From NCBI RefSeq assembly GCF_053078305.1, contig NZ_CP166879.1: a stretch of DNA of 64,000 nt; one strand, written 5' to 3'. The notes beneath the pieces were generated by a model. The model was not told the DNA's origin. It made no database searches and saw only the letters and a program-made list of their open reading frames with translations. Positions 3,904 through 61,369 of the stretch are shown in pieces. How positions within the stretch are numbered: the stretch's first letter is position 1; each line of letters opens with the position of its first letter. The translations under genes and the position numbers were made by a program.

Positions 3904-5293
3904 AATTACACTCGCTGAAATATGTACAGATATTTCATATGGATATACAGCAAGCGCAACTGCGAAACCTGTTGGTCCTAAATTTCTCCGTATAACAGAT
4001 ATACAAGGAGGCAAGGTCAATTGGGAAAATGTACCTTATTGTGAAATAGATGAGAAAGACTCTTTAAAGTATTTATTGCAAGATGGTGATATCGTAATCG
4101 CAAGAACCGGAAACAGTACTGGCGAAAACTTTATATTTAGCTCAAATACAAAAGTAGTATTTGCATCATACCTAATTCGGTTCCGTATTGATCCAAAGAA
4201 AGCAAATCCCAAATTTATTTGGCTTCAAATGAGAACACCTCAATGGTGGAGTTTTATTGATTCCGTAAAAACTGGCTCAGCCCAAGCTGGAGCTAATGCA
4301 AAGGTTTTGGGACTGTATGAGGTTGAATTACCCGAAAGAAAAATTCAAGACCACATTGCTGATATTGGATTTAATTTACTAAAAAAACAGGATATTAACT
4401 CCAAAATAAACCAAACCCTGGAACAAATGTCCCAAACCCTGTTCAAATCCTGGTTTGTGGATTTTGATCCAGTGATTGATAACGCTCTGGATGCAGGAAA
4501 TCCAATCCCGGAAGCCCTGCAAACTCGCACCAAATTGCGTCAAAAAGTACGTAATAGTGCAGATTTTAAACCACTTCCGGCGGAAATCCGCTCGCTTTTC
4601 CCAAGTGAATTTGAAGAAACGGAGTTGGGTTGGGTACCTAAAGGTTGGGATGTCGTAAAAACTGAAGATATTGCTATAAAAATTGGCATGGGGCCGTTTG
4701 GTTCAAATATTAAAGCATCACAATTTGTTAGTAGCGGTATCCCAATCATTAATGGCCAACAACTTAAAGGGCTTATTTTAGAAAAAAATTTTATCAACTA
4801 TATTACTGATGAGCATGCAAATATTCTCAAGAATTCATTAGTATATGAACACGACATTGTGCTAACTCATCGTGGCACACTTGGTCAAGTTTCATTAATA
4901 CCAAAAAGAAAGGGAAATGAAAAATTTGTAATCTCTCAGAGCCAATTCTACTTAAGAGTTGATAGGAAAAAATGTTCACCTTTTTATATGATACATTTTT
5001 TAAAATCTAGAATTGGTCAGGAAGCATTACTCTCCAATGCTTCTCAGGTGGGGGTTCCTTCTATAGCTCGTCCATCAACCCATTTAAAAAAAATAACTTT
5101 CATAAACCCACCATTATCACTGCATAAACTCTTTGACAATGAATTTGAAGTGATACTAGAAAAAATCATGAATTGCAAAGAGCAGTCACTGGCCCTAACC
5201 GCACTCCGCGACACCCTGCTCCCGAAACTCATCTCCGGTGAGCTATCCCTGGAAGATCTTCCGGATCTCACCACCGATACAGAAGCCGCATAA
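3893..5293 (+). CDS. hsdS: Type I R-M specificity subunit HsdS
   Basis: The start ATG at 3893 overlaps the hsdM stop (ATGGGGAGTAA). The two-target-recognition-domain layout is typical of HsdS. The middle of the gene is AT-rich, as expected for variable recognition domains. Confidence 0.7.
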
Positions 5294-5387
5294 CGCATTT
5301 TGCCCCTGTAAAATCAGGGGCTTTCTGGTAAGGTTTTCTACTGATACAGGAATGCTTACCAGAAATTAGCCAGGGTTGGAGCGCGAT

Positions 5388-8300
5388 ATGAGTCTCTCTT
5401 TCAGTGAAGCAAAATTAGAACAAGCGATCATTGAACTGCTACAGGATCAGGGATATCAACACCTGATCGGCGATAATGTCCCACGTTCGAGTCTCGATCA
5501 GGTCATTATCGAAGACGATCTCCGTCATTATTTAGCGGCACGCTACCAGCCTGATGGCATTACTGAAGAAGAGATTCAGCGACTGATCAAACAGTTCACC
5601 ACGCTTCCGGCCTCCGACCTTTATGAAAGCAACAAAACATTTTGTCGCTGGCTGGCAAATGGTTTTCTGTTCAAACGCGACGATCGGCAACAAAAAGATC
5701 TCTATATTGAATTGCTCGACACCCGGCATCTACCTGCCGCACTGCGCCAGATATTTGACGCCGAAGATGTCCCGTTGCAACAGGCGGCGGAACTCCCGCC
5801 TTCCTATATGAATCCGCCGCTTAACCGGATTAAGATTGTTAACCAGCTTAAAATCTCCGGCAAAGATAATCAGACTCGTATTCCTGACGGCATTCTCTAT
5901 ATCAATGGTCTGCCATTGGTCGTCTTTGAATTTAAAAGTGCGGTGCGCGAGCAGGAAGCCAGTATTGGCGATGCCTGGAAGCAGCTCTGTAAACGCTATC
6001 GCCGGGATATTCCGCAACTGTTTATCTACAACACGCTCTGCATTATTAGCGATGGCGTAAATAACCGGATGGGCAACCTGTTTGCGCCCTATGAATACTT
6101 TTACTCATGGCGCAAAGTCACCGGTAATGAAAACCGTGAACAGGACGGAATTCCATCATTGCACTCAATGATTCAGGGGCTGTTTCATCCGGTACGTCTG
6201 CTGGATGTGATTAAAAACTTTATCTGCTTCCCGGATAAAGCCAAGCACGAAGTAAAAATTTGCTGCCGATATCCGCAGTACTATGCCGCCCGCAAACTCT
6301 ATTACAGCATCAAGCAAGCGCGTAAACCTTTCGGTAGCGGTAAAGGCGGCACCTACTTTGGCGCAACGGGCTGTGGCAAAAGTTACACCATGCAATTTTT
6401 AACGCGTCTTTTGATGAAGAGCGTGGAGTTTGCCAGCCCGACCATTGTTTTGATCACCGACCGCACCGATCTGGACGATCAGCTTTCTGCGCAAATGTGC
6501 AACGCCAAAAATTACATTGGCGACGACACCATCGTTCCTGTTACCAGCCGTGAAGATTTGCGTAATCAACTGGCGGGACGCAATAGTGGCGGTGTATTCC
6601 TGACAACGATCCATAAATTCACCGAAGACACCGAACTCCTTTCTGAACGCAGCAATATCATTTGCATCTCGGACGAAGCACATCGCAGCCAGGTTAACCT
6701 CGACCAGAAAGTCATCGTCGATAAAGAAAGCGGAAAAGTACGCAAAACGTATGGCTTTGCAAAATACCTGCACGATTCACTGCCAAACGCCACCTATGTT
6801 GGCTTTACCGGCACACCGATTGACGCGACGCTCGATGTCTTCGGTGAGGTGATCGACAGTTACACCATGACCGAATCCGTTCAGGATGAAATCACTGTAC
6901 GCATCGTGTACGAAGGCCGTGCGGCTAAAGTGATCCTGGACTCCAGCAAACTGGAAGAAGTCGAAAAGTATTACGAAGAGTGCGCAAACGCAGGCACCAA
7001 TGAGTGGCAAATCGACGAAAGCAAAAAAGCCACCGCAACCATGAATGCGGTACTGGGTGATGAAGATCGGTTAAAAGCCCTCGCGGAAGATTTTGCCAAA
7101 CATTATGAAAAACGCGTAGCCGAAGGTTCCACCGTAAAAGGCAAAGCCATGTTTGTTTGTGCCAGCCGTGAAATTGCCTGGGATTTCTACCGTCAGCTTA
7201 AAGCTATTCGCCCTGCCTGGTTTGAAGTGAAGCAAGCACCCGATGGCGTCGTCCTGACGGAACAGGAACAAAAAGAGTTACCGCCTTCTGAAATGGTGAA
7301 GATGGTCATGACGCGCGGTAAAGATGACGACGAGGCGCTTTATGATTTACTGGGCACAAAAGAATATCGTAAAGAGCTGGATAAGCAATTCAAAAACGCT
7401 AAATCGAATTTCAAAATTGCCATTGTTGTTGATATGTGGCTGACCGGTTTCGACGTCCCGGAACTGGATACCATCTATATTGATAAACCCTTACAAAAAC
7501 ATAATCTTATCCAGACCATTTCTCGCGTTAACCGTAAACTGGAAGGCAAAAGTAAAGGGTTAGTGGTGGACTACATCGGCATTAAAAGCCAGATGAACCA
7601 GGCACTGGCAATGTATTCCCGCATTGATGCCACCAACTTTGAAGATATTCAGCAATCGGTAATAGAAGTTAAAAACCATCTCGATTTGTTGGGGCAAGTC
7701 TTTTACGAATTTGACAGTCGGGATTATTTTAGTGGTGAGCCACAAGCGCAATTATCCTGCCTCAACCGCGCGGCGGAATTTGTTCTGCGTACCCAGAAAG
7801 TTGAACGTCGTTTTATGGGACTGGTTAAACGCATGAAAGCCGCCTACGACGTCTGCTGCGGCAGCGAAGCATTATCACAGACAGAACGTGACTATATTCA
7901 CTATTATCTTGCTGTTCGTTCAATTGTTTTCAAACTGACGAAAGGTGACGCACCGGATGTTACCCAGATGAATGCACGCGTTCGTGAAATGATTGCAGAA
8001 GCGTTAAAAGCTGATGGCGTAGAAGAAATTTATTTTCTTGGGGATAAAAAAGCGGAATCCATCGATATTTTTGACGAAGATTATCTGGCGCGAATTAACA
8101 AAATCAAACTTCCGGCAACAAAGATCCAGTTATTACAAAAATTACTGGAAAAAGCGATCAGCGACTTCAAGAAAGTGAACCAGTTACAAGGGATTAACTT
8201 CACCCGCCGCTTCCAGGCGATTATAGATCGTTATAATGAGCGGCGAGAAGATGATGTACTCAACGGTGAAGAATTCGATACATTCAGTCAGGAAATGACC

Positions 8301-8651
8301 GATATTATCTATGATATTAAAACCGAAATGGGCACCTGGGCCGATTTAGGTATTGATATTGAAGAAAAAGCGTTTTTCGACATTCTTGCTCATATGCGCG
8401 ATAAATATCAGTTCACCTATGACGATGAAAAAATGCTGTCACTGGCAAAAGAGATGAAAAGCGTGGTTGACAACACATCGAAATATCCTGACTGGAGTAA
8501 ACGCGATGATATTAAAGCGAAACTGAAAGTTGAACTTATTCTGCTTCTACACAAGCATAAGTTCCCGCCAGTAGCGAATGATGATGTTTATATGGGTGTG
8601 CTGGCACAGGCAGAGAATTTTAAAGAACACCATATGAATGCTTTAAATTAA
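5388..8651 (+). CDS. hsdR: Type I R-M restriction subunit HsdR (SF2 helicase/nuclease)
   Basis: About 1087 aa with helicase motifs GATGCGKS (Walker A), DEAH (ICISDEAHRSQ), GFTGTP and LTGFDVP…ISRVNR. The ATG at 5388 has a GGAG ribosome-binding site 6 nt upstream; the ORF list used an upstream TTG. Confidence 0.75.
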   Translation: MSLSFSEAKLEQAIIELLQDQGYQHLIGDNVPRSSLDQVIIEDDLRHYLAARYQPDGITEEEIQRLIKQFTTLPASDLYESNKTFCRWLANGFLFKRDDRQQKDLYIELLDTRHLPAALRQIFDAEDVPLQQAAELPPSYMNPPLNRIKIVNQLKISGKDNQTRIPDGILYINGLPLVVFEFKSAVREQEASIGDAWKQLCKRYRRDIPQLFIYNTLCIISDGVNNRMGNLFAPYEYFYSWRKVTGNENREQDGIPSLHSMIQGLFHPVRLLDVIKNFICFPDKAKHEVKICCRYPQYYAARKLYYSIKQARKPFGSGKGGTYFGATGCGKSYTMQFLTRLLMKSVEFASPTIVLITDRTDLDDQLSAQMCNAKNYIGDDTIVPVTSREDLRNQLAGRNSGGVFLTTIHKFTEDTELLSERSNIICISDEAHRSQVNLDQKVIVDKESGKVRKTYGFAKYLHDSLPNATYVGFTGTPIDATLDVFGEVIDSYTMTESVQDEITVRIVYEGRAAKVILDSSKLEEVEKYYEECANAGTNEWQIDESKKATATMNAVLGDEDRLKALAEDFAKHYEKRVAEGSTVKGKAMFVCASREIAWDFYRQLKAIRPAWFEVKQAPDGVVLTEQEQKELPPSEMVKMVMTRGKDDDEALYDLLGTKEYRKELDKQFKNAKSNFKIAIVVDMWLTGFDVPELDTIYIDKPLQKHNLIQTISRVNRKLEGKSKGLVVDYIGIKSQMNQALAMYSRIDATNFEDIQQSVIEVKNHLDLLGQVFYEFDSRDYFSGEPQAQLSCLNRAAEFVLRTQKVERRFMGLVKRMKAAYDVCCGSEALSQTERDYIHYYLAVRSIVFKLTKGDAPDVTQMNARVREMIAEALKADGVEEIYFLGDKKAESIDIFDEDYLARINKIKLPATKIQLLQKLLEKAISDFKKVNQLQGINFTRRFQAIIDRYNERREDDVLNGEEFDTFSQEMTDIIYDIKTEMGTWADLGIDIEEKAFFDILAHMRDKYQFTYDDEKMLSLAKEMKSVVDNTSKYPDWSKRDDIKAKLKVELILLLHKHKFPPVANDDVYMGVLAQAENFKEHHMNALN

Positions 8652-22565: not shown

Positions 22566-25500
22566 ATGGCTTCGACAAATGCGCATCAAATAAAAAATAA
22601 TGATCAAAACTCTTTATGTGGTCTGGGTGACAAAATACGCCGCCTGACCGCCGGAGTTTGTTTATTTACACAATTTTTTTTCCCCGTCATGGCGACGGCA
22701 CAAAATGTGGTACACGCTAAACCTCAGACGACAGTTTCATCTGCCCCCCCTCTACTAGAAAATAATACGGTGCCTTACACGCTTGGTGCGCTGGAATCAG
22801 CGCAAAGCGTTGCTGATCGATTCGGTATTTCACTGGAGGAGCTTCGTCGTCTTAATCAGTTCCGTACTTTTGCTCGCGGCTTTGATAACGTGCGCCAGGG
22901 TGAAGAACTGGATGTTCCGGCAACAACCTCGCAGAAAAGCCATGAGCAACAAAATGCCGTACCGCCTGCGAATGGCGAAAACACGCTGGAGAATCAAATA
23001 GCCAGCACCTCGCAGCGAGTTGGCACTCTGCTTTCACAAGATATGAATAGTGAGCAGGCCAGCGGCATGGCGCGTGGTTGGGCGTCTTCAGAAGCCTCTG
23101 GCGCGATGACTGATTGGTTAAATAACTTTGGCACTGCGAAAATCTCTCTGGGTGTGGATGAAGATTTTAGCCTGAAAAATTCGCAATTCGACTTCCTGCA
23201 TCCGTGGTATGACACACCTGATTATCTGCTCTTCAGCCAGCATACCCTTCACCGAACAGACGATCGTACCCAGATCAACACCGGTTTGGGCTGGCGTCAT
23301 TTCACCTCCAGCTGGATGTCAGGCATCAACCTGTTTTTTGACCACGACCTGAGCCGCTATCACTCCCGCGCAGGGCTTGGCGCAGAATACTGGCGTGATT
23401 ATCTGAAGTTGAGCAGCAACGCTTATATCGGCCTGACCGGCTGGCGTAGCGCACCAGAATTGGATAACGACTTCGAAGCCCGCCCGGCCAACGGCTGGGA
23501 TTTACGCGCGGAAGGCTGGTTACCTGCCTGGCCACAACTGGGGGGAAAACTGGTCTATGAACAATACTATGGCGATGAAGTGGCGCTGTTTGACAAGAAT
23601 GATCGTCAAAGTAACCCCCATGCTATTACCGCAGGCCTCAACTATACCCCCTTCCCGCTTCTGACTCTCAGTGCGGAACAGCGTCAGGGGAAGCAAGGTG
23701 AAAATGACACACGTTTTGCCGTTGATCTGACCTGGCAACCCAGCAGTTCAATGCAGAAACAGCTTAATCCGGACGAAGTGGCCGGACGGCGCAGTCTGGC
23801 CGGTAGTCGTTATGACCTGATTGATCGCAACAACAACATCGTTCTGGAATACCGCAAGAAAGAGCTGATTCGCCTGAGTCTGCTGGATCCGGTGAAAGGG
23901 AAGTCTGGAGAAATAAAACCGCTGGTTTCCTCGCTACAGACCAAATATGCCCTGAAAGGCTATAACATCGAAGCCGCTGCGCTGGAAGCTGCCGGAGGTA
24001 AAGTCAGCACGTCTGGAAAAGATATCACGGTCACGCTGCCAGGTTACCGCTTCACTAACACCCCAGAAACCGATAATACATGGTCGATAGACGTTACCGC
24101 CGAGGATGTAAAAGGTAACCTGTCACGGCATGAACAAAGCATGGTAGTTATTCAGGCTCCGACATTAAGCCAGAAAGATTCTCTGTTATCCGTCAATCCG
24201 CTAACCGTGGCTGCAGATAAAAAATCGACGACCACATTGACCGTTACTGCGCACGATTCCGACGGAACTCCGGTGCCGGGGCTGGCGCTGCAAACCCGCA
24301 GTGAAGGCGTTCAGGATATCACCCTGTCTGACTGGACAGATAACGGTGATGGTAGTTACACACAGATACTGACCGCCGGAACGACATCAGGTTCAGTAAC
24401 ACTGACGCCGCAAATTAACGGTGAGAGTGCGGTAAAAGAATCCATCGTCGTTAATATCGTCCCTGTTGTCTCATCCCGCGACCATTCATCAATAACAATT
24501 GATAACGTATCGTATTATGCCGGAGACGACATCAAGGTTAGGGTGGAACTGAAAGACGACAGCAATCAACCGGTTGCATATCAAAAAGAGGAATTGGTAA
24601 AAGCCGTTACTGTCGAAAACAGCAAACCTGGCACCACGATTGTCTGGCACGAAGAGCAGCCGGGGGTTTATGCCGCGAATTATCCGGCCCATAAGCAAGG
24701 GACTGCACTAAGGGCACAACTTAGCCTTCACAACTGGAATGCTCCACTGCAATCGCATATTTATAACATTGAGGCAAACCAGAATAAGGCTCGCGTTGCC
24801 ACATTATCAGCGACAAATAATGACGTTTACGCCGATAAAAAGACATTTAATACCCTCACGATCAACGTCACTGATGAGAGTGATAATCCCCTGACAAATC
24901 ATCAGGTCACCTTTAAGAATGAAAAAGGAAGCGCGGAGTTTGTCGAACCGCCGCAGCAAAATACGGATGCATATGGTGTTGCCACAATAAACATGGTAAG
25001 TCAGGTTGCGGAAGAAAATACGATTAGCGCCACGCTGCCAAATGGTTTCTCACAACGGATAATTGCGAAATTCGTTAGCGATTCGAGTACGCCAAAATTC
25101 AAACAACTGGTTGCCGATCCAGATACCATTATTGCTGGCAACAGCCAGGGCAGTACTCTGACCGCCATCGTCACAGACTTTCATAACAACCCGTTAAAAG
25201 ATATGAAAGTGAATTTTGTGGCACCTGGTGGCTCGCAACTGGACAACACGACCGCCACAACAGACCAGTCCGGTATTGTGCGGGTGCACCTGACCAGTTC
25301 AAAAGCTGGTAGCTATTCCGTCGATGCCTCGCTTGAGGTGGATAAAAATATTCACCAGTCGGTCACGATCACCGTGGTCCCAAACAGGGAACAATCGGTA
25401 ATGACCTTGAATGCCGGGTCGGGCAGTGCGATCGCTAACAATACAAATATCGTTACCCTGACTGCCAGTGTGAAAGATGTTTATGGACACCCGTTGCCGG

Positions 25501-27806
25501 ATGAGGATGTGAAATTTACCTTGCCAGCCTCCATGACCGGGAACTTCACGCTAAGTAGTGAAACCGCCCGCACCGATGCAAACGGTGATGCCGTGGTCAC
25601 ATTGCGAGGCACAAAAGCGGGTGAGTTTACAGTTACGGCGACGCTGACCAGAAATAATACCGTTGTTTATCAGCAAGTCACTTTTATTGGGGATACAAAC
25701 AGTGCGCAGCTCCAGCCGCTGACTGCCTCATTAAATTCCATTGTTGCGGGTAACAGTACGGGGAGTACCCTGACGGCAACGATCCTGGACGCTTACCAAA
25801 ATCCGCTTAAAGACCAGTTGGTCACTTTCCAGAGTAACGATGTCACTCTAAGCGGAACAGAAGTCACCACCAATACGCTGGGTCAGGCGACGGTAACAAT
25901 GACCAGCAATATTGCCGGGCAACATAACGTCGTGGTGAGCCGGAAAGCGCAAGCCTCCGATAATAAAACGTTTAGTTTATCAGTGCTCCCGGATGAAAGT
26001 TCGGCGAAGGTAATAAGTATAACCGGAGCCGAAAAAACGATAACGGTTGGCGAAAACATCACGCTACGGATACTCGTCCAGGACGCGTTTAACAATGTAA
26101 TCGCGGGTCAACGCGTCAGATTAAGTGCGCAGCCAACAACTAACATTACGATAGGCGATACGGCTTACACCGATAATAACGGTTATGCGTACGTTAACCT
26201 TCTCAGCACCCAACCTGGGGTTTATCAGGTGACGGCAACGCTGGACAATAACAGTAGTAGTAAGGTTGACGTGAATGTGGCAAATGGCAAACTCGAGTTA
26301 ACATCATCGAAACCAGAAACCACGGTCCATAATAGTGAGGGTATTACGCTGACCGCAACGGCGAGAAATGCGCGGGGTGAATTGATGCCAGGGCAAATTA
26401 TCACCTTTAGCGTAACGCCTGAAGGTGCAACGCTAAGCAATACAGGGGAAGTCCTTACTGACCAGTCAGGTCAGGCCAAAGTGACGCTGACCAGTGACAA
26501 AGTGAATGTCTATACCGTTACGGCCATAATGAGCAAAGATGTTCCCGTTCAGAGCCAGGTAACGGTTGCGGTTAAGGCAGATGCTAAAACGGCACATGTT
26601 GTGAGCGTCGTGGCTTCTCCTGACACCATCACCGCCGACGGCATCGATAGCAGCACCATCACTTCACGAGTAGAAGATGATTACGGATTCCCGGTTGAAG
26701 GTGTCGATGTTAGTTATACCTTAGACACCAAAGGTCGCCCGGTAGTTAATATTCCAACTACGCGTACCGATCAATCCGGGCAAGTCACGGCGACAATAAC
26801 CAGTACATTGGCAGAAACCTTAACAGTCAATGTGCAAGTTCCTGGTACAGCCAACCAATCCGCAGCTATTACCTTGATTGCCGGCACGGCGGATGAAAGT
26901 AAGTCAATTTTGAAATCCGACGTTAGCACTCTGATGGCTGACTACCAGCATAGCGCGAAACTTACGCTAACATTGCAAGACAAGTACGGTAACCCGATAG
27001 TGACGTCTGATCATCTGGAATTTGTCCAGTCAGGTCCCTTCGTGAACTTTCTCAAGTTGAGCGATATTGATTACAGCCAAAGAAATTATGGCGAGTACAC
27101 CGTGACTGTCACTGGCGGAAAAGAGGGAACAGCGACTCTCATTCCCATGCTGAACGGGGTTCATCAGGCAAACTTAAGCGTATCGCTGAATCTCATCCGC
27201 TCGATAAAAGAAATGTCCGGTCATGTCACTGCAAACAACCATACCTTCTCCACGGCTAAATTCCCGAGCGAAGGTTTTGCAGGAGCGTATTACACACTCA
27301 ACAATGATAACTTTGAAGCGGGTAAAACCGTTGATGATTATATGTTTTCAAGTTCACAGAGTTGGGTGTCGGTCGATGCTTCAGGTAAGGTTTCTTTCGC
27401 AAATATCGGCGATCAAACGTCAGTCACAATAAGCGCTGTTCCCCGACAAGGAGGTACAACCTACCAGACCTTAATTAAGCTGAAAGGCTGGTGGGTGAAT
27501 AATGGAAATCATACCAATATCTGGCTAGCTGCCAATGCGCTCTGTCATGCTAAAAATGATGGATATAATCTTCCAGGCATCACACATTTGACGTCTGGCG
27601 AAAACAAACGCACGCAGGGATCACTGTATGGTGAATGGGGGAACGTTGGAGCGTTTTCCAGTAATTCGCAATTTACACAAGGAGCTTACTGGACAAGTGA
27701 ATCTGATGATTACAATCGGCACTACTATGTGCAGATGCTAACCGGTATGACTGGAAGCGACGCTGATTCCAGCCCCCAACTGACCGCCTGCCGTAAATCA
27801 CTATAA
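22566..27806 (+). CDS. Inverse-autotransporter (intimin/invasin-family) adhesin with LysM, beta-barrel, many Ig-like repeats and a C-terminal lectin-like domain
   Basis: 1746 aa. N-terminal LysM-like segment (YTLGALESAQSVADRFGISLEELRRLNQF), an intimin/invasin-type barrel region, then about a dozen roughly 100-aa Big_1-like repeats, and a Cys-containing C-terminal domain. Confidence 0.7.
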   Translation: MASTNAHQIKNNDQNSLCGLGDKIRRLTAGVCLFTQFFFPVMATAQNVVHAKPQTTVSSAPPLLENNTVPYTLGALESAQSVADRFGISLEELRRLNQFRTFARGFDNVRQGEELDVPATTSQKSHEQQNAVPPANGENTLENQIASTSQRVGTLLSQDMNSEQASGMARGWASSEASGAMTDWLNNFGTAKISLGVDEDFSLKNSQFDFLHPWYDTPDYLLFSQHTLHRTDDRTQINTGLGWRHFTSSWMSGINLFFDHDLSRYHSRAGLGAEYWRDYLKLSSNAYIGLTGWRSAPELDNDFEARPANGWDLRAEGWLPAWPQLGGKLVYEQYYGDEVALFDKNDRQSNPHAITAGLNYTPFPLLTLSAEQRQGKQGENDTRFAVDLTWQPSSSMQKQLNPDEVAGRRSLAGSRYDLIDRNNNIVLEYRKKELIRLSLLDPVKGKSGEIKPLVSSLQTKYALKGYNIEAAALEAAGGKVSTSGKDITVTLPGYRFTNTPETDNTWSIDVTAEDVKGNLSRHEQSMVVIQAPTLSQKDSLLSVNPLTVAADKKSTTTLTVTAHDSDGTPVPGLALQTRSEGVQDITLSDWTDNGDGSYTQILTAGTTSGSVTLTPQINGESAVKESIVVNIVPVVSSRDHSSITIDNVSYYAGDDIKVRVELKDDSNQPVAYQKEELVKAVTVENSKPGTTIVWHEEQPGVYAANYPAHKQGTALRAQLSLHNWNAPLQSHIYNIEANQNKARVATLSATNNDVYADKKTFNTLTINVTDESDNPLTNHQVTFKNEKGSAEFVEPPQQNTDAYGVATINMVSQVAEENTISATLPNGFSQRIIAKFVSDSSTPKFKQLVADPDTIIAGNSQGSTLTAIVTDFHNNPLKDMKVNFVAPGGSQLDNTTATTDQSGIVRVHLTSSKAGSYSVDASLEVDKNIHQSVTITVVPNREQSVMTLNAGSGSAIANNTNIVTLTASVKDVYGHPLPDEDVKFTLPASMTGNFTLSSETARTDANGDAVVTLRGTKAGEFTVTATLTRNNTVVYQQVTFIGDTNSAQLQPLTASLNSIVAGNSTGSTLTATILDAYQNPLKDQLVTFQSNDVTLSGTEVTTNTLGQATVTMTSNIAGQHNVVVSRKAQASDNKTFSLSVLPDESSAKVISITGAEKTITVGENITLRILVQDAFNNVIAGQRVRLSAQPTTNITIGDTAYTDNNGYAYVNLLSTQPGVYQVTATLDNNSSSKVDVNVANGKLELTSSKPETTVHNSEGITLTATARNARGELMPGQIITFSVTPEGATLSNTGEVLTDQSGQAKVTLTSDKVNVYTVTAIMSKDVPVQSQVTVAVKADAKTAHVVSVVASPDTITADGIDSSTITSRVEDDYGFPVEGVDVSYTLDTKGRPVVNIPTTRTDQSGQVTATITSTLAETLTVNVQVPGTANQSAAITLIAGTADESKSILKSDVSTLMADYQHSAKLTLTLQDKYGNPIVTSDHLEFVQSGPFVNFLKLSDIDYSQRNYGEYTVTVTGGKEGTATLIPMLNGVHQANLSVSLNLIRSIKEMSGHVTANNHTFSTAKFPSEGFAGAYYTLNNDNFEAGKTVDDYMFSSSQSWVSVDASGKVSFANIGDQTSVTISAVPRQGGTTYQTLIKLKGWWVNNGNHTNIWLAANALCHAKNDGYNLPGITHLTSGENKRTQGSLYGEWGNVGAFSSNSQFTQGAYWTSESDDYNRHYYVQMLTGMTGSDADSSPQLTACRKSL

Positions 27807-29917: not shown

Positions 29918-31090
29918 ATGATTGATTATACCGCAGCCGGTTTTACCCTGCTGCAGGGAGCGCATTTGTATGCGCCGGAAGATCGGGGAATTTGCGATGT
30001 CCTCGTCGCTAACGGCAAAATTATCGCCGTTGCCAGCAATATCCCTTCTGACATTGTACCGGACTGCACGGTTGTCGATCTCAGCGGGCAGATCCTCTGC
30101 CCAGGTTTTATTGATCAACACGTCCATTTGATTGGCGGTGGCGGCGAAGCAGGTCCCACGACGCGCACGCCGGAAGTGGCGCTAAGTCGCCTGACGGAAG
30201 CGGGCGTCACGTCAGTGGTTGGTCTGCTGGGCACCGACTCTATCTCTCGCCACCCGGAATCCCTGCTCGCCAAGACCCGTGCGCTCAATGAAGAAGGCAT
30301 CAGCGCCTGGATGCTGACCGGCGCTTATCATGTCCCTTCCCGCACCATTACGGGTTCCGTGGAAAAAGACGTGGCGATTATCGATCGTGTGATTGGTGTG
30401 AAATGCGCCATCTCTGATCACCGTTCTGCCGCACCGGACGTTTATCACCTGGCTAATATGGCGGCCGAATCCCGCGTTGGCGGTTTGCTCGGCAGTAAAC
30501 CTGGCGTCACCGTGTTCCACATGGGCGACAGTAAAAAGGCGTTACAGCCTATCTATGACCTGCTGGAAAACTGCGATGTGCCGATCAGCAAGCTGCTGCC
30601 GACCCACGTTAACCGCAACGTACCGTTGTTTGAGCAGGCGCTGGAGTTCGCGCGCAAAGGCGGCACCATCGATATCACCAGCAGCATTGACGAACCGGTC
30701 GCCCCTGCCGAAGGTATTGCCCGCGCCGTTCAGGCGGGTATTCCGCTGGCACGCGTCACCCTCAGCTCCGACGGCAACGGTAGCCAGCCGTTCTTCGACG
30801 ACGAAGGGAATTTAACCCATATCGGTGTTGCAGGTTTTGAAACGTTGCTGGAAACCGTGCAGGTGCTGGTTAAAGACTATGATTTCAGTATCAGCGATGC
30901 CCTGCGCCCGCTCACCAGTAGCGTAGCCGGTTTCCTTAACCTGAGCGGGAAAGGCGAAATTCTGCCAGGCAATGACGCAGACTTACTGGTCATGACGCCA
31001 GAATTGCGCATTGAGCAGGTATACGCTCGCGGCAAACTGATGGTCAAAGACGGCAAAGCCTGCGTGAAAGGAACGTTTGAAACGGCATAA
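29918..31090 (+). CDS. iadA: Isoaspartyl dipeptidase
   Basis: 390-aa amidohydrolase with the HVHLIGGGGE metal-binding motif; matches IadA. Confidence 0.8.
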   Translation: MIDYTAAGFTLLQGAHLYAPEDRGICDVLVANGKIIAVASNIPSDIVPDCTVVDLSGQILCPGFIDQHVHLIGGGGEAGPTTRTPEVALSRLTEAGVTSVVGLLGTDSISRHPESLLAKTRALNEEGISAWMLTGAYHVPSRTITGSVEKDVAIIDRVIGVKCAISDHRSAAPDVYHLANMAAESRVGGLLGSKPGVTVFHMGDSKKALQPIYDLLENCDVPISKLLPTHVNRNVPLFEQALEFARKGGTIDITSSIDEPVAPAEGIARAVQAGIPLARVTLSSDGNGSQPFFDDEGNLTHIGVAGFETLLETVQVLVKDYDFSISDALRPLTSSVAGFLNLSGKGEILPGNDADLLVMTPELRIEQVYARGKLMVKDGKACVKGTFETA

Positions 31091-52767: not shown

Positions 52768-53418
52768 TTAATTTGATTTATTCGCATCCATCAACGCTTT
52801 TAACTCCTCCGGCGTAAACGGTGGTTTGCGTCGGTGCAACATCGCATGGCAATTAGGGCACACAGGAAGTAAATCATTAACTGGATCCAGCAGGTAATCC
52901 TCTTTAATGGCTGAAAGCGGCACCAGGTGATGCATATGGATAAAGCCCTCAGCGATATCGCCATAGATCTTCACCAGATCAACGCCGCATACGTTGCACT
53001 GGCATCCGTGATATTCGACTGCTTTCTCGCGAGCTTTTTTATCGCGTTCATAGCTGTTTACCGTCACCTTTATCGCCGCACCTTCAACGTAGGTCCCCTG
53101 CGACGGCAACTCATCCGGGAACAGAACATCGGCTATGGGAGCCGCAGCGGCTTTATCCTGATGAATATGAAATCCCTGATCTATAAGTAGCTTGACGCAT
53201 TTAGATTTTATTCCGCCGGTGAAATCCGCAGGGGTAAATTGCGTCCCCGTCATCAATGTCGCTGCGATGCCAGCAATCGCCTTCGAGGGGTAACGTCGGC
53301 CATGATATTCAATCTCATACAACCGTGCAGGCTGGAACTGATGAGTTTCTCCCGCATCCCATAAATGAATAGCTTTGATGATATACCGCCGAGGAAGATG
53401 ATCGGGGAGTTTATTCAT
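52768..53418 (-). CDS. HNH-endonuclease-domain protein (possible modification-dependent restriction nuclease)
   Basis: 216 aa with a C-terminal HNH/zinc-finger signature CQCNVCG…HMHHLVP…N…CPNCH. The N-terminal domain is unidentified. Confidence 0.55.
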   Translation of the reverse strand: MNKLPDHLPRRYIIKAIHLWDAGETHQFQPARLYEIEYHGRRYPSKAIAGIAATLMTGTQFTPADFTGGIKSKCVKLLIDQGFHIHQDKAAAAPIADVLFPDELPSQGTYVEGAAIKVTVNSYERDKKAREKAVEYHGCQCNVCGVDLVKIYGDIAEGFIHMHHLVPLSAIKEDYLLDPVNDLLPVCPNCHAMLHRRKPPFTPEELKALMDANKSN

Positions 53419-53497
53419 GGAGAATGTCCTTATACGTTCTCAGAACAAGCAGCAAAAAAACAAATGAGATCAAAGTAATATATCTTCACTTGCAGGC

Positions 53498-54427
53498 TTG
53501 AACAGCAGAAAATTTGCGAGCATGATCGCAATTATTTCACTGCCAGGGATATCAATGGCTTCCAGTAAATCGCTACAGCAGGCAATTGCCAATATAAAAA
53601 TCTGGCATAAGGGTGAACAGCGCGCGCCGCATAAGCCATTGTTATTGCTATACGTATTAGCGGGATACCTGCATGGACATCCGCGCCTTTTCGATTATGG
53701 CTCGGAAATCTACGAACCTCTGCACAGTTTACTGGAACGTTTTGGGCCACAGCGTTCACAGTACCGACCTGATATGCCGTTCTGGCGATTACAAGGCGAC
53801 GGATTCTGGCAATTACACAATGCCGAGCGTTGCTCAACAGCAGGGAGCAGCCGACAACCGCCAGTGAAGGAACTGAACGAATACCACGTTGCAGGCGGTT
53901 TCGATGAACAGCACTACGCCCTGGTAACCGGCAATAAAAAACTCATCAATACTCTGGCGCAACAGATACTCGAAGCGCACTTCACCGAGAGTATTCAGGA
54001 AGAAATTGCTGACGAGCTGGGTTTTGATCTCCAGCAAATCCGTAAACAGCGCGACCCGTTATTTCGCAAAAATGTATTACGCGCTTATAAATACCAGTGC
54101 GCGATATGTGGCTTTAATATGCGCCACGACGACACCACCGTCGCGCTGGAAGCGGCGCATATAAAATGGAAACAGCACGGCGGTCCTTGTGAAATTCCTA
54201 ATGGCCTGGCGCTTTGCGCAATTCACCATAAAGCCTTTGATAAAGGATCGATTGGCCTGGACGAAAATATGCGGGTACTGGTATCAGATGCGGTAAACGG
54301 CGGAGGGATCGTTGAGAGATTATTCTGGGATTTTGACGGGAAAACTATTGCGTTGCCGCAGGTGCGTAAAAATTACCCTTATGAGGGGTTTGTGGAGTGG
54401 CATCGGAAAGAGGTTTTTAGGGGGTGA
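53498..54427 (+). CDS. HNH-endonuclease-domain protein (second copy, divergent)
   Basis: 309 aa with a C-terminal HNH signature YQCAICGF…AAHIKW…NGLALCAIHHKAFDKG. The N-terminal domain is unidentified. Confidence 0.55.
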   Translation: MNSRKFASMIAIISLPGISMASSKSLQQAIANIKIWHKGEQRAPHKPLLLLYVLAGYLHGHPRLFDYGSEIYEPLHSLLERFGPQRSQYRPDMPFWRLQGDGFWQLHNAERCSTAGSSRQPPVKELNEYHVAGGFDEQHYALVTGNKKLINTLAQQILEAHFTESIQEEIADELGFDLQQIRKQRDPLFRKNVLRAYKYQCAICGFNMRHDDTTVALEAAHIKWKQHGGPCEIPNGLALCAIHHKAFDKGSIGLDENMRVLVSDAVNGGGIVERLFWDFDGKTIALPQVRKNYPYEGFVEWHRKEVFRG

Positions 54428-54468
54428 GGTTGATAACTATCGCAGTATGTTCAATATTGCTGACATAA

Positions 54469-54651
54469 TCAGTGCAGGATCTTGCCGCTAGTTTACAACT
54501 CGCCTTCGATAGCGGCGCAAAACGAGTTCTGTTGCCGATATCCTCGGCTATGGATATTCCAACAGTTCCGGCAGAGTTGTTTACCAAGTTTCAGGTAAGT
54601 TTTTACTCAGAACCGGTTGATGCGGTTTATAAGGCGCTGGATGTGAATTAA
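54469..54651 (+). pseudogene. Possible 3' remnant of a Lon-like protease gene
   Basis: Start-less 60-codon frame ending …LQLAFDSGAKRVLLPISSAMDIPTVPAELFTKFQVSFYSEPVDAVYKALDVN*. This resembles the extreme C-terminus of Lon-family protease domains. Confidence 0.3.
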
Positions 54652-55049
54652 CACATTCCTCAGCTTATTTATAAAAGGATTATTCCCATTTGATATAATA
54701 TCAGTGCCAATTTACTTTTTTCAATGGAATATATCTCGGCTAAATAACAATAAAACTTATCGCTAATGGATTAAATAAACAATTTTCTAATTCATTTCAC
54801 CACCTTTGATATAGAAATTGATGGTGTTGTCGCTGCCATTGCTTATGGTGATGATAAAATCCACGTTTCTGGATCGTTGCGTAGAAAATCATCACTACCT
54901 TGATATTTTGATGCGATATGATCATACCGTTCCGTAGTACCAATTTCAATTTCAGGCTAAACCCCAACATTAAAAAAATTAGAGTTATTCACTGATTATA
55001 TTATCAATAATATAATCAGTGAATAACATGGACTATATAATAAATTGCT

Positions 55050-57320
55050 CTAATCATTTCCCTTACGAATATATGGGCCAAAAGCCCAAGAATCATAATA
55101 AGGGTGATGGACTAGTTTTTCATTAAATCGAACACTATAAGTTAATTTTTTTATATTTTTACGTACAGCATTAATACTGGGCAAAGAGGAAAGATAATCT
55201 ATAAACTTATCGATAGTGATTTCCCCTTCGCAACACTCAAACCCATCAATGATATTTTTCGCCATTTTTCCATTTTCATTTGTTTGATATATCACTCCAG
55301 GTATTCGTTGAAAAAAACTAGATAATGCATATTTGTCCGCTACATATGTATCATCCACATGATATTTCCCACCGAGCATAGTTGTAGTAACAATAAGCTT
55401 ATACACACCTTTGGGTTGCCATGTTGATGGTAGTTCGAATTCTTTAATGATCACATCAAGATGATTAAGATAATGTTCAGAAATTCGATTTATTTGTTGA
55501 AAATAAGAACGCATAAATTTATTATTATGATCATGTATTAATGAGCTATCTCCAACGATGTTACACACTTGCTGATAGTACTTACCATAATATATTGGTT
55601 GACCATTTGATTTTAGTTCTGTAAAAATCAAACAATCATCCAGGAGAATCACGCAATCGCACTGATAATTAGCATGAGCATCAATTGGAGAAGCTTTAAT
55701 CCCCGCATCACGAACTTGTTTTATAAATTGTTGCTCATGAAATCGCCCTTTACTTGCTTGAGAAATTTTTTTGGAACCAAATAATGACATTAGAGAGCGA
55801 GTCACTGAGCTATTTGCTATTAATGCAGGCATTAAGCATAAACCGTCCATACAGGGAATAAATGGGCAATCATTAAGATCATGTGATTTTGAATTGAAGG
55901 TAAAATAATCTATCAGTTTTTTTGCTGCATCTGCTGCAATCCCCTTACGTTGAAAGAATGATAACCAACTCTCACGGCTTTTTATGATCAGCCAGCGATC
56001 CAACTGTAGGGGTATAGGTTTTGTCGATGAAAATCTTTTGCTCATTTCTTCTTTAGATAACTCGACTAAACATTGATAAGCGTGCACCCAATTAAATAAT
56101 GATATATTCCCATATTCTTCATGAAGGTCATCAGGAGATATATTTTCCAACTCGCTTAGATGAAATGAGCTAAAAACGCCATCAGAATTTAAGTAAGATG
56201 GCATATGATCCTTTACCCAACTATTTAGATGAAAATGTTTGTTACTAAATTCATGAACTTCGCTATATAGATGTGACGCTCTCATCATTAGTCTATTTCT
56301 TGCAATCTCATAATCTCGGTATAAACAAAAACTATCAACCTCAAGAGAGTAAATGTTATTATCCAATTTTGTAAATACTGCACTACTTAGTCTGAAAAAG
56401 TCTCTTACTCTGCTTAATGAGTCAAAAACATTCCACTCATTAAGGTACCCTCCCATTGAAAGCAAGGTTTGTTTATTCACACAAGAAGTTAGTTTCAATG
56501 GCTCATGAGTCCGTAAATAAGAAAATATTCGTCCGGTGTAATTGGCTACCTCATCAAATGCCCTATCGATAACTCGAAAATATTCGATATCAGGTTCAGC
56601 ATGAATATTAATATTTTCAGAAACGATTACTCTGCTTAATGAGTCAAAAACATTCCACTCATTAAGGTACCCTCCCATTGAAAGCAAGGTTTGTTTATTC
56701 ACACAAGAAGTTAGTTTCAATGGCTCATGAGTCCGTAAATAAGAAAATATTCGTCCGGTGTAATTGGCTACCTCATCAAATGCCCTATCGATAACTCGAA
56801 AATATTCGATATCAGGTTCAGCATGAATATTAATATTTTCAGAAACGATAAATAATGGAAAAATCCTCTTCATTTTTTTAGGATCATTGACCACAACCAA
56901 GGATGATAATGATGATAAAAACATCTCACAAAACATGATGAGATTAAGTATTAATGCATGTGATTTTTTTGTATTTTTACGCCAAATACCAGCACATTTT
57001 GTAGCCGCAAAGAAAGAATTATTTATATCATGCATAATTTTACATTGACTCTCGAACTCAGAAATTAGTTCAATGTTATCAGGAAATGAGTTTACTAGCT
57101 CATTAATACATTTTTTGAATGTATTGTTATACTCAACTTCAGTCTGAACTGAAAATCTATTATAATAGATGGAAGATATTCTCAGCACATCCAAGGCGAT
57201 ATCTATACTAATATCATCTCTTTTTATGTACTCACAAAAAAAAGAACAAAACTGTTTCGGGTCGTTAGCAAGATTACTAATTCTAGTGGTATCATAAACT
57301 TTTTCCATTTTTCCATACAT
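55050..57320 (-). CDS. Large low-GC hypothetical protein (756 aa) with an internal 74-aa perfect tandem duplication
   Basis: Long minus-strand ORF with its own AT-rich upstream region and no recognisable family by eye. A possible PD-(D/E)XK-like motif (CDCVILLDD…TELK) lies in the C-terminal third. Confidence 0.5.
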   Translation of the reverse strand: MYGKMEKVYDTTRISNLANDPKQFCSFFCEYIKRDDISIDIALDVLRISSIYYNRFSVQTEVEYNNTFKKCINELVNSFPDNIELISEFESQCKIMHDINNSFFAATKCAGIWRKNTKKSHALILNLIMFCEMFLSSLSSLVVVNDPKKMKRIFPLFIVSENINIHAEPDIEYFRVIDRAFDEVANYTGRIFSYLRTHEPLKLTSCVNKQTLLSMGGYLNEWNVFDSLSRVIVSENINIHAEPDIEYFRVIDRAFDEVANYTGRIFSYLRTHEPLKLTSCVNKQTLLSMGGYLNEWNVFDSLSRVRDFFRLSSAVFTKLDNNIYSLEVDSFCLYRDYEIARNRLMMRASHLYSEVHEFSNKHFHLNSWVKDHMPSYLNSDGVFSSFHLSELENISPDDLHEEYGNISLFNWVHAYQCLVELSKEEMSKRFSSTKPIPLQLDRWLIIKSRESWLSFFQRKGIAADAAKKLIDYFTFNSKSHDLNDCPFIPCMDGLCLMPALIANSSVTRSLMSLFGSKKISQASKGRFHEQQFIKQVRDAGIKASPIDAHANYQCDCVILLDDCLIFTELKSNGQPIYYGKYYQQVCNIVGDSSLIHDHNNKFMRSYFQQINRISEHYLNHLDVIIKEFELPSTWQPKGVYKLIVTTTMLGGKYHVDDTYVADKYALSSFFQRIPGVIYQTNENGKMAKNIIDGFECCEGEITIDKFIDYLSSLPSINAVRKNIKKLTYSVRFNEKLVHHPYYDSWAFGPYIRKGND
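56405..56849 (-). repeat. Perfect 222-bp direct tandem duplication, in frame, inside the 756-aa ORF
   Basis: The two adjacent 222-bp copies are identical by eye and encode …SENINIHAEPDIEYFRVIDRAF…NEWNVFDSLSRV twice. Confidence 0.85.
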
Positions 57321-57975: not shown

Positions 57976-57998
57976 GCGACTCGATTTGCATACGGTGT
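57976..57998 (-). repeat. att-site remnant: partial copy of a tRNA-Leu (leuX-like) 3' end
   Basis: The minus strand reads GTTCGAGTCCGGCCTTCGCACCA (T-arm, acceptor stem, CCA) with one base missing relative to leuX as I recall it. There is no upstream tRNA body, so this is not a functional tRNA. Confidence 0.5.
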
Positions 57999-58285
57999 GG
58001 TGCGAAGGCCGGACTCGAACATTTAATTAAACAACTGTATTTAAATAGTTTTTGTATTTAAAAATGAATTGATGCCCCTTTTTGTGCCCCCATTACCAAA
58101 ATAACAACCTAACCTTGTACTAAAAAAGAGATTTTTCAATGTAGGCACTCTGGTTCGGCTACGCTTACCGGAGACGAACCTGAACATAAGAAATCTGAGA
58201 TAACTTCATAGTAATCATCTTTAACACTTTTGACCAATAATATCTATCATAAAGGCAGAGAAATTAATCTCTGCCTTTATTAAGG

Positions 58286-59154
58286 TCACATAAAAAGATT
58301 ATTAATTAGAGTACACTGTTGACATCCATTAATATCTACAGCTTTTAAAAAATCTGTGTTACTAATCAAAACAGCATTACTAACACCTGAAAACTGCAGC
58401 TGTGCATACATACCTAAGATAGATTTTTTTTCGTAATACTGAGATCTTCCTGTATAACTTTCACCAGTATTAGAACTTATAAATCGCCTCGTTCTTTCTT
58501 GTATCAATAAATTATTTTTAAGGAAGCTCAAAATATCTTGCTGCAATTGTTTGTTTTTGTTATGAAAATAACATAACAATTGATCCTCTAAGGTACCAAG
58601 CTGAGTGTTAACGTCATGAAAAATATACCCCCCCATTCACTCCCATTAAACTCAATAATACTTCCATTGGAGAGTTGAGTAGTATCTTCTAAACCTATCT
58701 CATTTTTAATCTCTGTTATTCTGGCATCAATGCCAAGTTCATCAGCATCAAAAAAATATAAAAATCTATATGCAATTTCTATACTGAAGTCATCTGTACC
58801 AGAAAGTTCTTTATACATAGTGACTAACTCAGCCCTTTCACGACTTCTGCCATCACCATTTAGATTATGTATAAAAATTAAGTTCCCGTTATGATAGAAA
58901 CAAACAGAAGGTAGTTTTGGCCCGTTTGGCTGAAAGCCAAGTTTTTTATCTGGAATTCTTACTTGACTTAGTTCTTTTTCAAAGCGTTTATCAAACGGTG
59001 GAGGTAATTGACCAATTTTAAGATCTTGAAGTTGGAATCCATTAACTAAAAGAATTCTGCTAAGAAAAGCGACGTCATGCTGTCCTTCACAAAAGGCAAC
59101 TATGACTCTATTATAAGATACACTCACAATTTTAGCCTCTAATATCAAGATCAA
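58286..59154 (-). pseudogene. Toprim-like (OLD/AriB-like) gene split by a frameshift at a G7 tract
   Basis: ORFs 58588-59154 and 58286-58636 overlap across a C7/G7 homopolymer (58628-58634). The N-terminus has VAFCEGQHD and a later FFDADELG (Glu … DxD), suggestive of a Toprim fold. Fusing the frames gives an approximately 300-aa protein. Confidence 0.45.
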
Positions 59155-61369
59155 TATTTTTTATCAAATAGCCAAATCTTTCGCCATCAGCCCTTTTCAC
59201 TACTACTTTATCGTCAACTTTGCTTAACTGAAATCCAGTAATGCAATCATTATTATAATCATTATTTAAAAAAGCTCTGATACATTCACCCGAATGTGAC
59301 GTAAGGAACACTTGCACATTGAAACGTTCTGCAAGTTGTTGCGTAAATTTAGTAAACTCCAATAGTAAACTATAATGAATCGCAGTTTCAAATTCATCAA
59401 TAAAAAGTACACCGTTACGACATGCAGCAAAAGATAAAGCTATATAAAAGATGCGCTGAATACCCTCTCCATAAGAAGTAAGATCGAAACTTCTGTTAAA
59501 ATCATATGCTGATTCTACGATAAACCTTTTGAGCTCCATGTCTTCAGTAAATCTGACATCTTTTATCGTTGGCTCAATTTTATTCATGAATTCAATAACA
59601 AGGCCGATAGCGGATTGTATATTTAAATCATCTGATTCTGAGTCAGTTACAGACGTTAAATTTGCACCTATACTTTTGTTATAATCAGTGAGCAAATCGT
59701 CTATATCGTAGAAATAAGGGCTTTTAAATGACGATGAACACAAATGCGAAACTTGATCAGCGTTCCTTCTCATACGTTCATGGATAAAAGTATGGACTGT
59801 GTTATTTCTAAATTCTCCATCAATGCTAGACTTTAAGCTATAAGATGCTATATAGTCATCTTGTTTATCAATTGAAGAATCATCATATTTAATCATTTCA
59901 ACAGTAACATTACTATCATCAAATACTCCTGACAAGATTATTTTATCTTGGAAAAGAGCATTTAGCAATGTTGGACTCAAAGTACTGATTTTATTTTTTT
60001 GCCTAATAAGATTAAAATGCGATGAAATATCATTACGCTGCGTCAATAAGTAAATTGCTTCAAGCAATGAAGTTTTTCCAGCATTATTAAAGCCAGCAAT
60101 GATATTAATCTTATTGAAATTATCCAATGAGAAGTTTTTAAAGAATTTATATTTTTTGATATAAATGGATTTAAAATGTTTTTTTACTCCATACTCAAAA
60201 TTAGTTGTATAGTTTCCTCCTTCGATATTTATAGCCATCTGCTTTGGCATTATTTGTGTTAGTTTTTCTTTTGCATCATCTAATAAGCGCAAATCCTCTT
60301 GGTTTATGAGGCTACTATATAGATTTAAATCCTTTAAGGCGTCTTCAAGCTTGCTTAAAGCATTTTTATAGTTTTGCTGATTTACTGAACCGCTCGCAGC
60401 TAATCCTCTTGCAAGGCTACGTTCATCCTCCATTACCTTCAAGGCTTTTTCATTATTGATGAACAAAGCAAGATCTCGTATCTCAAGAGATTTAGTAATT
60501 ATAGGTTCTAGCTCAACGTATTCACCATTACTTTCCTCTTCAATATCATCTTCTAGCTCATTTTTCTCAAGGTATTCATCTGTTTTAGAGATCCACGAAA
60601 AAAGCCTATCAAGATTCACTAAATTTCTAGCATAATAACCGTTATCACTCCAGTCTAACCAAGATTTAATTACAGGCTTTTTGATTATTTCTTCAAAAAT
60701 ACCAAACATACTTGGTTCGAATTGCTCACCATACTCACTTGTTTTATATAAGGAAATTAGATTATAAACTCTAAGCATAGAGCGAAGACGCGTTTTAGAA
60801 ATACCGAGCGAACTAACTAGCTCATCTTCTTTTTCAACATACTCATCTCGAGTTTTGTCTTCATATGGTTTTAAAAAATCATAAAGCAGTTTGGACTGAT
60901 TATATGTTGACCACTTTTTATTACCACTTATATGCTTTAATCCCATTACAATCAGATGTTTTTCAACATCTTGATTATTATGGATTTCGAAAGGAACACT
61001 TCTAAAAATAGATGGATCTAGTTTTCCAATATCAAACCCCTTTTCATATGCTTCTTGCAATGCTTTCAGCGCCGTTACACGACGATTTCCCTCAAGGACT
61101 AAATAATTGTTATCTCCTAAATCCTTTACTTGAATAACATCAACATCTAAGTATCCATTAGATTTAAAACTTGCTATTAGATCTTTGATATTCTCTTGTC
61201 TATTTCCTTCTATAAAAAAGCGAGTCCTACGCTGAATTGTTGGATCTAGCATGTCCTTTTCTGAGACTGGCTTGTGCTGGTCATTGTCAACAAAACGGTA
61301 GTTATTAGGATCTAGAAATAAATTTTTTAAATTTTTGCTAATGCGCGGGCGAATTTGCTCGACATTCAT
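59132..61369 (-). CDS. Fusion of an N-terminal ParB/Srx-like domain with a C-terminal ABC-type (SMC/RecF/OLD-like) ATPase
   Basis: 745 aa. ParB box LVLEGNRRVTALKAL near the N-terminus; Walker A GFNNAGKTS, Walker B LFIDEFE and H-loop LTSHS in the C-terminal half. Low GC. Confidence 0.6.
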   Translation of the reverse strand: MNVEQIRPRISKNLKNLFLDPNNYRFVDNDQHKPVSEKDMLDPTIQRRTRFFIEGNRQENIKDLIASFKSNGYLDVDVIQVKDLGDNNYLVLEGNRRVTALKALQEAYEKGFDIGKLDPSIFRSVPFEIHNNQDVEKHLIVMGLKHISGNKKWSTYNQSKLLYDFLKPYEDKTRDEYVEKEDELVSSLGISKTRLRSMLRVYNLISLYKTSEYGEQFEPSMFGIFEEIIKKPVIKSWLDWSDNGYYARNLVNLDRLFSWISKTDEYLEKNELEDDIEEESNGEYVELEPIITKSLEIRDLALFINNEKALKVMEDERSLARGLAASGSVNQQNYKNALSKLEDALKDLNLYSSLINQEDLRLLDDAKEKLTQIMPKQMAINIEGGNYTTNFEYGVKKHFKSIYIKKYKFFKNFSLDNFNKINIIAGFNNAGKTSLLEAIYLLTQRNDISSHFNLIRQKNKISTLSPTLLNALFQDKIILSGVFDDSNVTVEMIKYDDSSIDKQDDYIASYSLKSSIDGEFRNNTVHTFIHERMRRNADQVSHLCSSSFKSPYFYDIDDLLTDYNKSIGANLTSVTDSESDDLNIQSAIGLVIEFMNKIEPTIKDVRFTEDMELKRFIVESAYDFNRSFDLTSYGEGIQRIFYIALSFAACRNGVLFIDEFETAIHYSLLLEFTKFTQQLAERFNVQVFLTSHSGECIRAFLNNDYNNDCITGFQLSKVDDKVVVKRADGERFGYLIKNIDLDIRG

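Follow-up and report, generated by a model that had tools for sequence, protein, structure and literature searches.

A truncated brxL at the leuX hotspot of Escherichia coli probably marks the deletion of a type I BREX cassette

The open frame at positions 54469–54651 (+) of the window, i.e. of the whole 64,000-nucleotide stretch of DNA that was analysed, is very probably (about 0.93 in our estimate) the 3' stub of brxL, the final gene of a type I BREX cassette, left by a deletion of about 14.56 kb at the leuX hotspot. The window belongs to an E. coli chromosome, the region being 100% identical to several RefSeq genomes, and the stub lies between nanC-nanM-nanS and the leuX tRNA gene, at E. 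coli defence hotspot #37, where BREX occurs in about 9% of isolates and which is known for cassette replacement (PMC12707154). The stub is predicted to be an ordinary, non-functional scar of defence-island turnover and matters little on its own; as a footprint, it would show that a BREX-plus-PLD locus (PLD, phospholipase-D-like) once existed at leuX, and was then lost, in this lineage and in 360 of 5426 complete E. coli genomes.

Translation of 54469–54651 (+) gave SVQDLAASLQLAFDSGAKRVLLPISSAMDIPTVPAELFTKFQVSFYSEPVDAVYKALDVN, ending at a TAA stop codon, and reproduced exactly the peptide given in an earlier, sequence-only reading of this DNA. Since a 60-codon open frame is unremarkable in the window, where dozens of similar frames appear in the ORF listing, the interest of the fragment above chance comes from its homology to BrxL and not from its ordinary length. 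Among the NCBIfam models, the 60 residues matched a single one, TIGR02653 ('protease Lon-related BREX system protein BrxL', E = 1.2e-24), over profile positions 617–675 of 675, i.e. the last 59 positions, with the alignment reaching the profile end; the score of 86.7 bits, against a full-length cut-off of 628 bits, falls short as expected of a fragment. The PADLOC BrxL model matched at 8e-20, and the BrxL chains in the PDB (8EMH, 8EMC and 8EIL; Acinetobacter, 679 aa) aligned over residues 621–678 with E about 1e-21. The nucleotide identity of the stub to annotated brxL was 93–94%. In the comparison with E. coli BrxL (WP_001193073.1, from strains 1506D011 and PapM-32-1, of the same kind as the E. 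coli HS BREX), 56 of 59 residues were identical to residues 636–694 of 694 (95% amino-acid identity, E = 4e-36), with 93.9% nucleotide identity over the last 59 codons.

By profile, the stub sequence is that of BrxL, while the full BrxL architecture (N-terminal, AAA+ ATPase and Lon-like C-terminal domains, about 680–700 aa) is absent: 70 brxL codons are left, broken by a TAA codon and a 19-codon deletion. Acinetobacter BrxL is a 679-aa AAA+ DNA-binding ring, in which the Lon-like C-terminal domain dimerises hexameric or heptameric rings (PMC10164562); the stub corresponds to the end of that domain and lacks about two thirds of it, together with the N-terminal and ATPase domains. Judged on sequence, it is a pseudogene derived from the BrxL family and no functional member of it. 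RefSeq has already flagged it as such: on identical DNA, PGAP annotates 54472–54651 as a partial pseudogene, named 'hypothetical protein' or 'peptidase' and 'incomplete; missing N-terminus'. BREX occupancy of the leuX hotspot is likewise already published, and our literature search returned no paper on this particular scar, only publications that treat BREX at leuX in Salmonella and E. coli in general terms.

Intact counterparts of the locus from strains 1506D011 (L003) and PapM-32-1 (L004) were used as references. Their gene order is nanC, nanM, nanS', HNH', PT-DNA endonuclease (+), PDDEXK nuclease (−), brxA, brxB, brxC, pglX, pglZ and brxL, the next gene after brxL in L004 being phospholipase-D-like. 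The sequence-only reading had mentioned a BREX link as speculation and had proposed a comparison with syntenic strains; that comparison recovered full-length brxL with its BREX neighbours in both, as part of a full type I BREX cassette at exactly the same position. The intact brxL shares with the stub its site, its left neighbour (the PT-DNA endonuclease gene, which in intact loci is conserved next to the BREX cassette) and its stop codon. In contrast to it, the stub keeps only codons 606–616 and 636–694 of 694, and the other BREX genes are absent from the locus: instead of the co-located brxA, brxB, brxC, pglX, pglZ and brxL that define a type I system, the window has the stub directly abutting the PT-DNA endonuclease gene, and the window ORFs of at least 150 aa that were scanned, a part of all such ORFs, gave no BREX family match. 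The scar and its flanks comprise the following features:

53555–54427 (+): PT-DNA ('phosphorothioated DNA-binding') restriction endonuclease gene, the intact left flank (RefSeq annotation; Pfam HNH_2, 5.8e-10)
54436–54438 (+): junction of the large deletion, GATAA/C/TATCGC, with microhomology of at most 2 nt
54438–54471 (+): upstream brxL piece, codons 606–616 (54439–54471), with Lys615 changed from AAA to TAA at 54466–54468
54472–54479 (+): single surviving 8-nt direct repeat, GTGCAGGA, marking a 57-bp in-frame deletion
54472–54651 (+): main brxL piece, codons 636–694 and the stop, which together with the codon 54469–54471 forms the open frame first noticed
54652–54749 (+): relic of the brxL-to-PLD intergenic spacer, within an 85.6% match to L004
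54750–54934 (+): relic of the PLD-like gene, first ~62 codons (tblastn of the L004 PLD-like protein)
54984–55027 (no strand assigned): perfect inverted repeat with a 20-bp stem and a 4-nt loop, GTTATTCACTGATTATATTA/TTGA/TAATATAATCAGTGAATAAC, at the right edge of the relic block
55050–57320 (−): AT-rich, unrelated 'hypothetical protein' gene (RefSeq annotation), in the place expected for the remainder of the PLD-like gene

The junctions were placed by blastn, short-word BLAST and pairwise or global alignment against L003 and L004. On the left, window 53445–54436 was colinear with L003 4358–5349 at 97.7% identity, covering the endonuclease gene and 9 bp past its stop codon; on the right, window 54472–54652 corresponded to L003 20001–20181, the last 59 brxL codons, at 93.9%. 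The 35 bp between them (54437–54471) were considered as foreign filler, an explanation rejected when short-word BLAST and global alignment showed them to be diverged brxL: window 54438–54479 aligned in frame with L003 19910–19951 (35 of 42 positions identical; blastn-short E = 3e-5 against L004). The junction, whose exact sequence is GATAACTATCGC ... TCAGTGCAGGATC, contains one base, the C at 54437, that matches neither L003 flank. Relative to L003, the missing DNA extends from 5350 to about 19909 (about 14.56 kb), from 9 bp past the endonuclease stop through brxL codon 605, and includes the PDDEXK gene (PADLOC candidate PDC-S11), brxA, brxB, brxC, pglX, pglZ and 605 of the 694 brxL codons. 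The earlier proposal that a truncated gene here would mark a deletion or replacement event is thus borne out by the comparison with intact syntenic loci. As the microhomology at the junction does not exceed 2 nt, the deletion was illegitimate and not site-specific or homologous.

Two further lesions lie within the brxL remnant. The upstream piece fell outside the frame that had been described because of the in-frame TAA at 54466–54468; the frame itself stands, and the remnant is longer than it by 31 nt on the left (54438–54651). This 34-nt piece is more diverged than the main one (82% against 94% identical). In intact brxL, the repeat GT(A/G)CAGGA occurs twice, at L003 19944–19951 and 20001–20008, and the alignment gap is 57 nt (19 codons, BrxL 617–635). 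Loss of 57 bp with one repeat copy kept is the mark of slippage between short direct repeats.

Homology to L004 did not stop at the end of brxL: window 54472–54934 was 85.6% identical to L004 20001–20484. The PLD relic within this match consists of three pieces in three frames (two frameshifts; combined E = 4e-16), its ATG has become ATA, and the remainder of the gene is cut off. A PLD stub downstream of the brxL stub shows that the ancestral locus was of the L004 type, i.e. BREX plus PLD. The surviving block of ~500 bp (brxL', spacer and PLD') lies between two separate rearrangements. Consistently with the AT-rich DNA that had been noticed downstream of the fragment, GC content was 0.30–0.34 over 54550–55300 and 0.48–0.51 upstream. 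The inverted repeat at 54984–55027 is followed by a T-run on the minus strand and is terminator-like, lying just 3' of the 756-aa minus-strand ORF.

The scar is widespread. A 141-nt probe spanning the double junction aligned without interruption in 360 of 5426 complete E. coli genomes, UTI89 included; NU14 and UM146 also carry the scar, and both junctions were common to all six scar loci compared. In 339 of the 360, the PLD' block and the downstream gene were present as well, whereas in the other 21 (SCZE5 type) different DNA began one base past the brxL stop. An intact brxL 3' end was found in 348 complete E. coli genomes, and among the E. coli genomes that retain brxL 3' sequence of any kind, about half have nothing more than a relic.

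From these data, an illegitimate deletion of ~14.56 kb joined the point 9 bp past the endonuclease stop to brxL codon 606, the stub bears in addition a 57-bp slippage deletion between 8-nt direct repeats and a nonsense codon, and the right side of the ancestral BREX-plus-PLD locus is now occupied by the unrelated AT-rich gene. The deletion probably arose once and then spread by descent and by recombination of its flanks. In E. coli BREX, brxL is required for protection and not for methylation, its expression alone is highly toxic, and plasmids deleted for brxZ or brxL gained multiple frameshifting deletions in other BREX genes (PMC6326788). The toxicity of brxL alone and the instability of partial BREX sets may thus have given loss of the system an advantage.

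In the 180-nt main piece, the differences from the intact allele were mostly synonymous (8 synonymous and 3 nonsynonymous; pS 0.19, pN 0.022), which traces the stub to a separate allele on which selection was still acting. Among scar copies, in contrast, the 7 segregating sites comprised 2 synonymous, 4 nonsynonymous and 1 nonsense change (GAA to TAA at 54610, in the SCZE5 locus L006 and in L008), a pattern expected under neutrality. No intact brxL more than ~94.5% identical to the stub was found in the E. coli genomes or plasmids searched, and therefore the exact parent allele appears to be unsampled.

This gap gives some weight to a different course of events, which we regard as unlikely while taking it more seriously than any other alternative: an already-scarred block (PT-DNA endonuclease, brxL' and PLD') might have come in from a different strain or species through recombination at the hotspot, with no deletion in situ in E. 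coli. Besides the lack of a close intact parent among E. coli genomes and plasmids, the stub and the E. coli brxL alleles of the locus share only ~94% identity, compared with ~98% for the flanking endonuclease, and the hotspot's documented cassette replacement (PMC12707154) fits an import. However, intact E. coli loci are colinear with the left flank up to and including the 9 bp that follow the endonuclease stop, and the scar haplotypes show a diversity (about 1–1.7%) like that of the flanking gene. If true, import would change the place of the deletion only, not the nature of the feature.

Wherever the deletion took place, the brxL stub itself seems to be inert: it lacks both a promoter and a ribosome-binding signal of its own, and its changes suggest neutral decay. 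That it has been retained for a reason, either as a homology anchor, with the brxL 3' end forming a shared module boundary for cassette swaps at hotspot #37, or as a translated 59-aa peptide that would disturb BrxL ring dimerisation, strikes us as quite improbable. Three different downstream contexts, those of L003, of L004 together with the window, and of SCZE5, start 1–2 nt from the brxL stop.

Slightly less credible still is a live small gene encoding a BrxL-tail decoy, or dominant-negative peptide, directed against incoming BREX systems. The frame had been described as start-less, which is nearly correct; its second codon is GTG, so that a 59-aa GTG ORF is present at 54472–54651, and its motif ELFTKFQ holds the equivalents of T658 and Q661, which mediate BrxL ring dimerisation (PMC10164562). 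The scar has, moreover, been kept in 360 genomes, and in Salmonella global effects followed when an 807-nt remnant of the brxL 3' end was over-expressed (PMC9009780). That remnant, however, was four times longer and was driven by the strong cat promoter (PMC9009780), whereas the 20 nt upstream of the GTG (caatattgctgacataatca) hold no Shine-Dalgarno-like purine run, and the only promoter-like match upstream on the + strand (54430–54458) is weak (9 of 12), the regional count being barely above shuffle expectation. In addition, 59 residues make up about a third of a ~180-residue domain and are unlikely to fold, some lineages have a premature TAA at codon 48, and the changes among scar copies are mostly nonsynonymous. 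A search for terminator-like sites in the stub and the downstream spacer (54428–54750) gave none.

An origin of the fragment in an S16 protease gene with no relation to BREX (canonical Lon, LonB or another), as the PGAP name 'peptidase' in some genomes and a weak match to Pfam Lon_C (PF05362; E = 0.28, 11.1 bits against a gathering score of 21.1) might suggest, is refuted by profile comparisons, PDB matches and identity to E. coli BrxL: the BrxL-specific models scored ~23 orders of magnitude better than Lon_C, a true Lon structure (PDB 7P6U) reached just E = 0.52, and the nucleotide identity is to annotated brxL. The resemblance to a Lon-type C-terminus that first drew attention to the frame was real in the sense that BrxL is a Lon-related BREX protein; the comparison then suggested, with Lon and BrxL sequences, separated a strong BrxL match (E = 1.2e-24) from weak true Lon ones (E = 0.28–0.52), making the fragment BrxL-specific and not generic Lon. 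The C-terminal domains of BrxL and Lon share ~14% identity and a distantly related fold, and the Lon catalytic motif has no obvious conservation in the BrxL domain, which dimerises two rings (PMC10164562). The Ser-Lys dyad would lie in a part of the domain that is deleted from the stub.

In practice, defence-system predictors should not count the brxL stub as BREX, and 'brxL pseudogene' would be a more precise PGAP name for it than 'peptidase' or 'hypothetical protein'. The scar could also be used as a marker to trace gains and losses at hotspot #37.

A comparable relic exists elsewhere in E. coli. A 330-nt pseudogene of strain BE2-5 (L009, 8782–9111), annotated as 'S16 family serine protease', is a brxL 3' stub that, like the one in the window, lacks the N-terminus, and it lies near a pglZ ('alkaline phosphatase') fragment. 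It differs from the window stub in locus and breakpoint, and it was cut by IS911 and not by a clean deletion. The independent occurrence of this relic argues that BREX decay is recurrent. In the SCZE5 locus (L006, 8213–11073), the new DNA after the scar is a Dcm-type methyltransferase cassette, whose first ~120 nt match the sequence that follows the BE2-5 relic, a coincidence hinting that brxL 3' ends may act as recombination boundaries.

Several other observations concern the wider island. Judging from its genes, the window seems to cover both the leuX hotspot and the side of the immigration control region. Its left part (1–34000) contains the type I R-M genes hsdS and hsdR (3860–8651), mdtM, a pentapeptide-repeat protein gene (17826–20000), an IatC-like inverse autotransporter gene (1746 aa, 22566–27806) and an isoaspartyl (beta-aspartyl) dipeptidase gene (29918–31090). 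Nearer the scar, an HNH endonuclease gene at 52768–53418 (−; 216 aa), divergent from the PT-DNA endonuclease gene, is intact in the window and reduced to a ~105-nt stub in L003, L005 and UM146, a further presence/decay polymorphism in the island.

The AT-rich gene at 55050–57320 carries a perfect in-frame tandem duplication of 222 bp at 56405–56849 (2.0 copies, 100% identical); its ORF encodes 756 aa with the duplication and 678 aa without it, as in L001, L002, L007 and L008, and the gene is frameshifted in UM146 and PapRG-04-4. Searches with the 678-aa protein gave no significant family in Pfam, NCBIfam or PADLOC, the only hit being a marginal match to PADLOC PDC-M29B (E = 0.0015). Homologues of the protein occur only within Enterobacterales (E. 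coli, Salmonella at 75%, Izhakiella, Xenorhabdus, Pectobacterium, and Pantoea at 40%), and its C-terminus holds an invariant PD-(D/E)xK-like motif with D477, D483, E490 and K492 ('...CDCVILLDD..FTELKS'). The AlphaFold model was poor (pLDDT 57), and the Foldseek matches that it gave, headed by the dual-nuclease defence protein Upx (E = 9e-6 but TM 0.21) and followed by weak matches to the McrC, Can2 and Shedu nucleases, serve as leads only. The gene may encode an uncharacterised defence nuclease.

The window contains no tRNA gene, only a 24-nt copy of the 3' end of leuX (tRNA-Leu) at 57997–58020, an attachment-site repeat lying between the old leuX-proximal island and a P4-like satellite that integrated later. 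To the right of the old island, this satellite carries a PADLOC candidate system, PDC-M38, with genes at 58289–59127 (−) and 59132–61369 (−). Its A gene is intact (745 aa, with a ParB-like N-terminus and an ATPase), and its B gene is split by a frameshift near 58597–58636 relative to the 280-aa gene of strain LH09-a.
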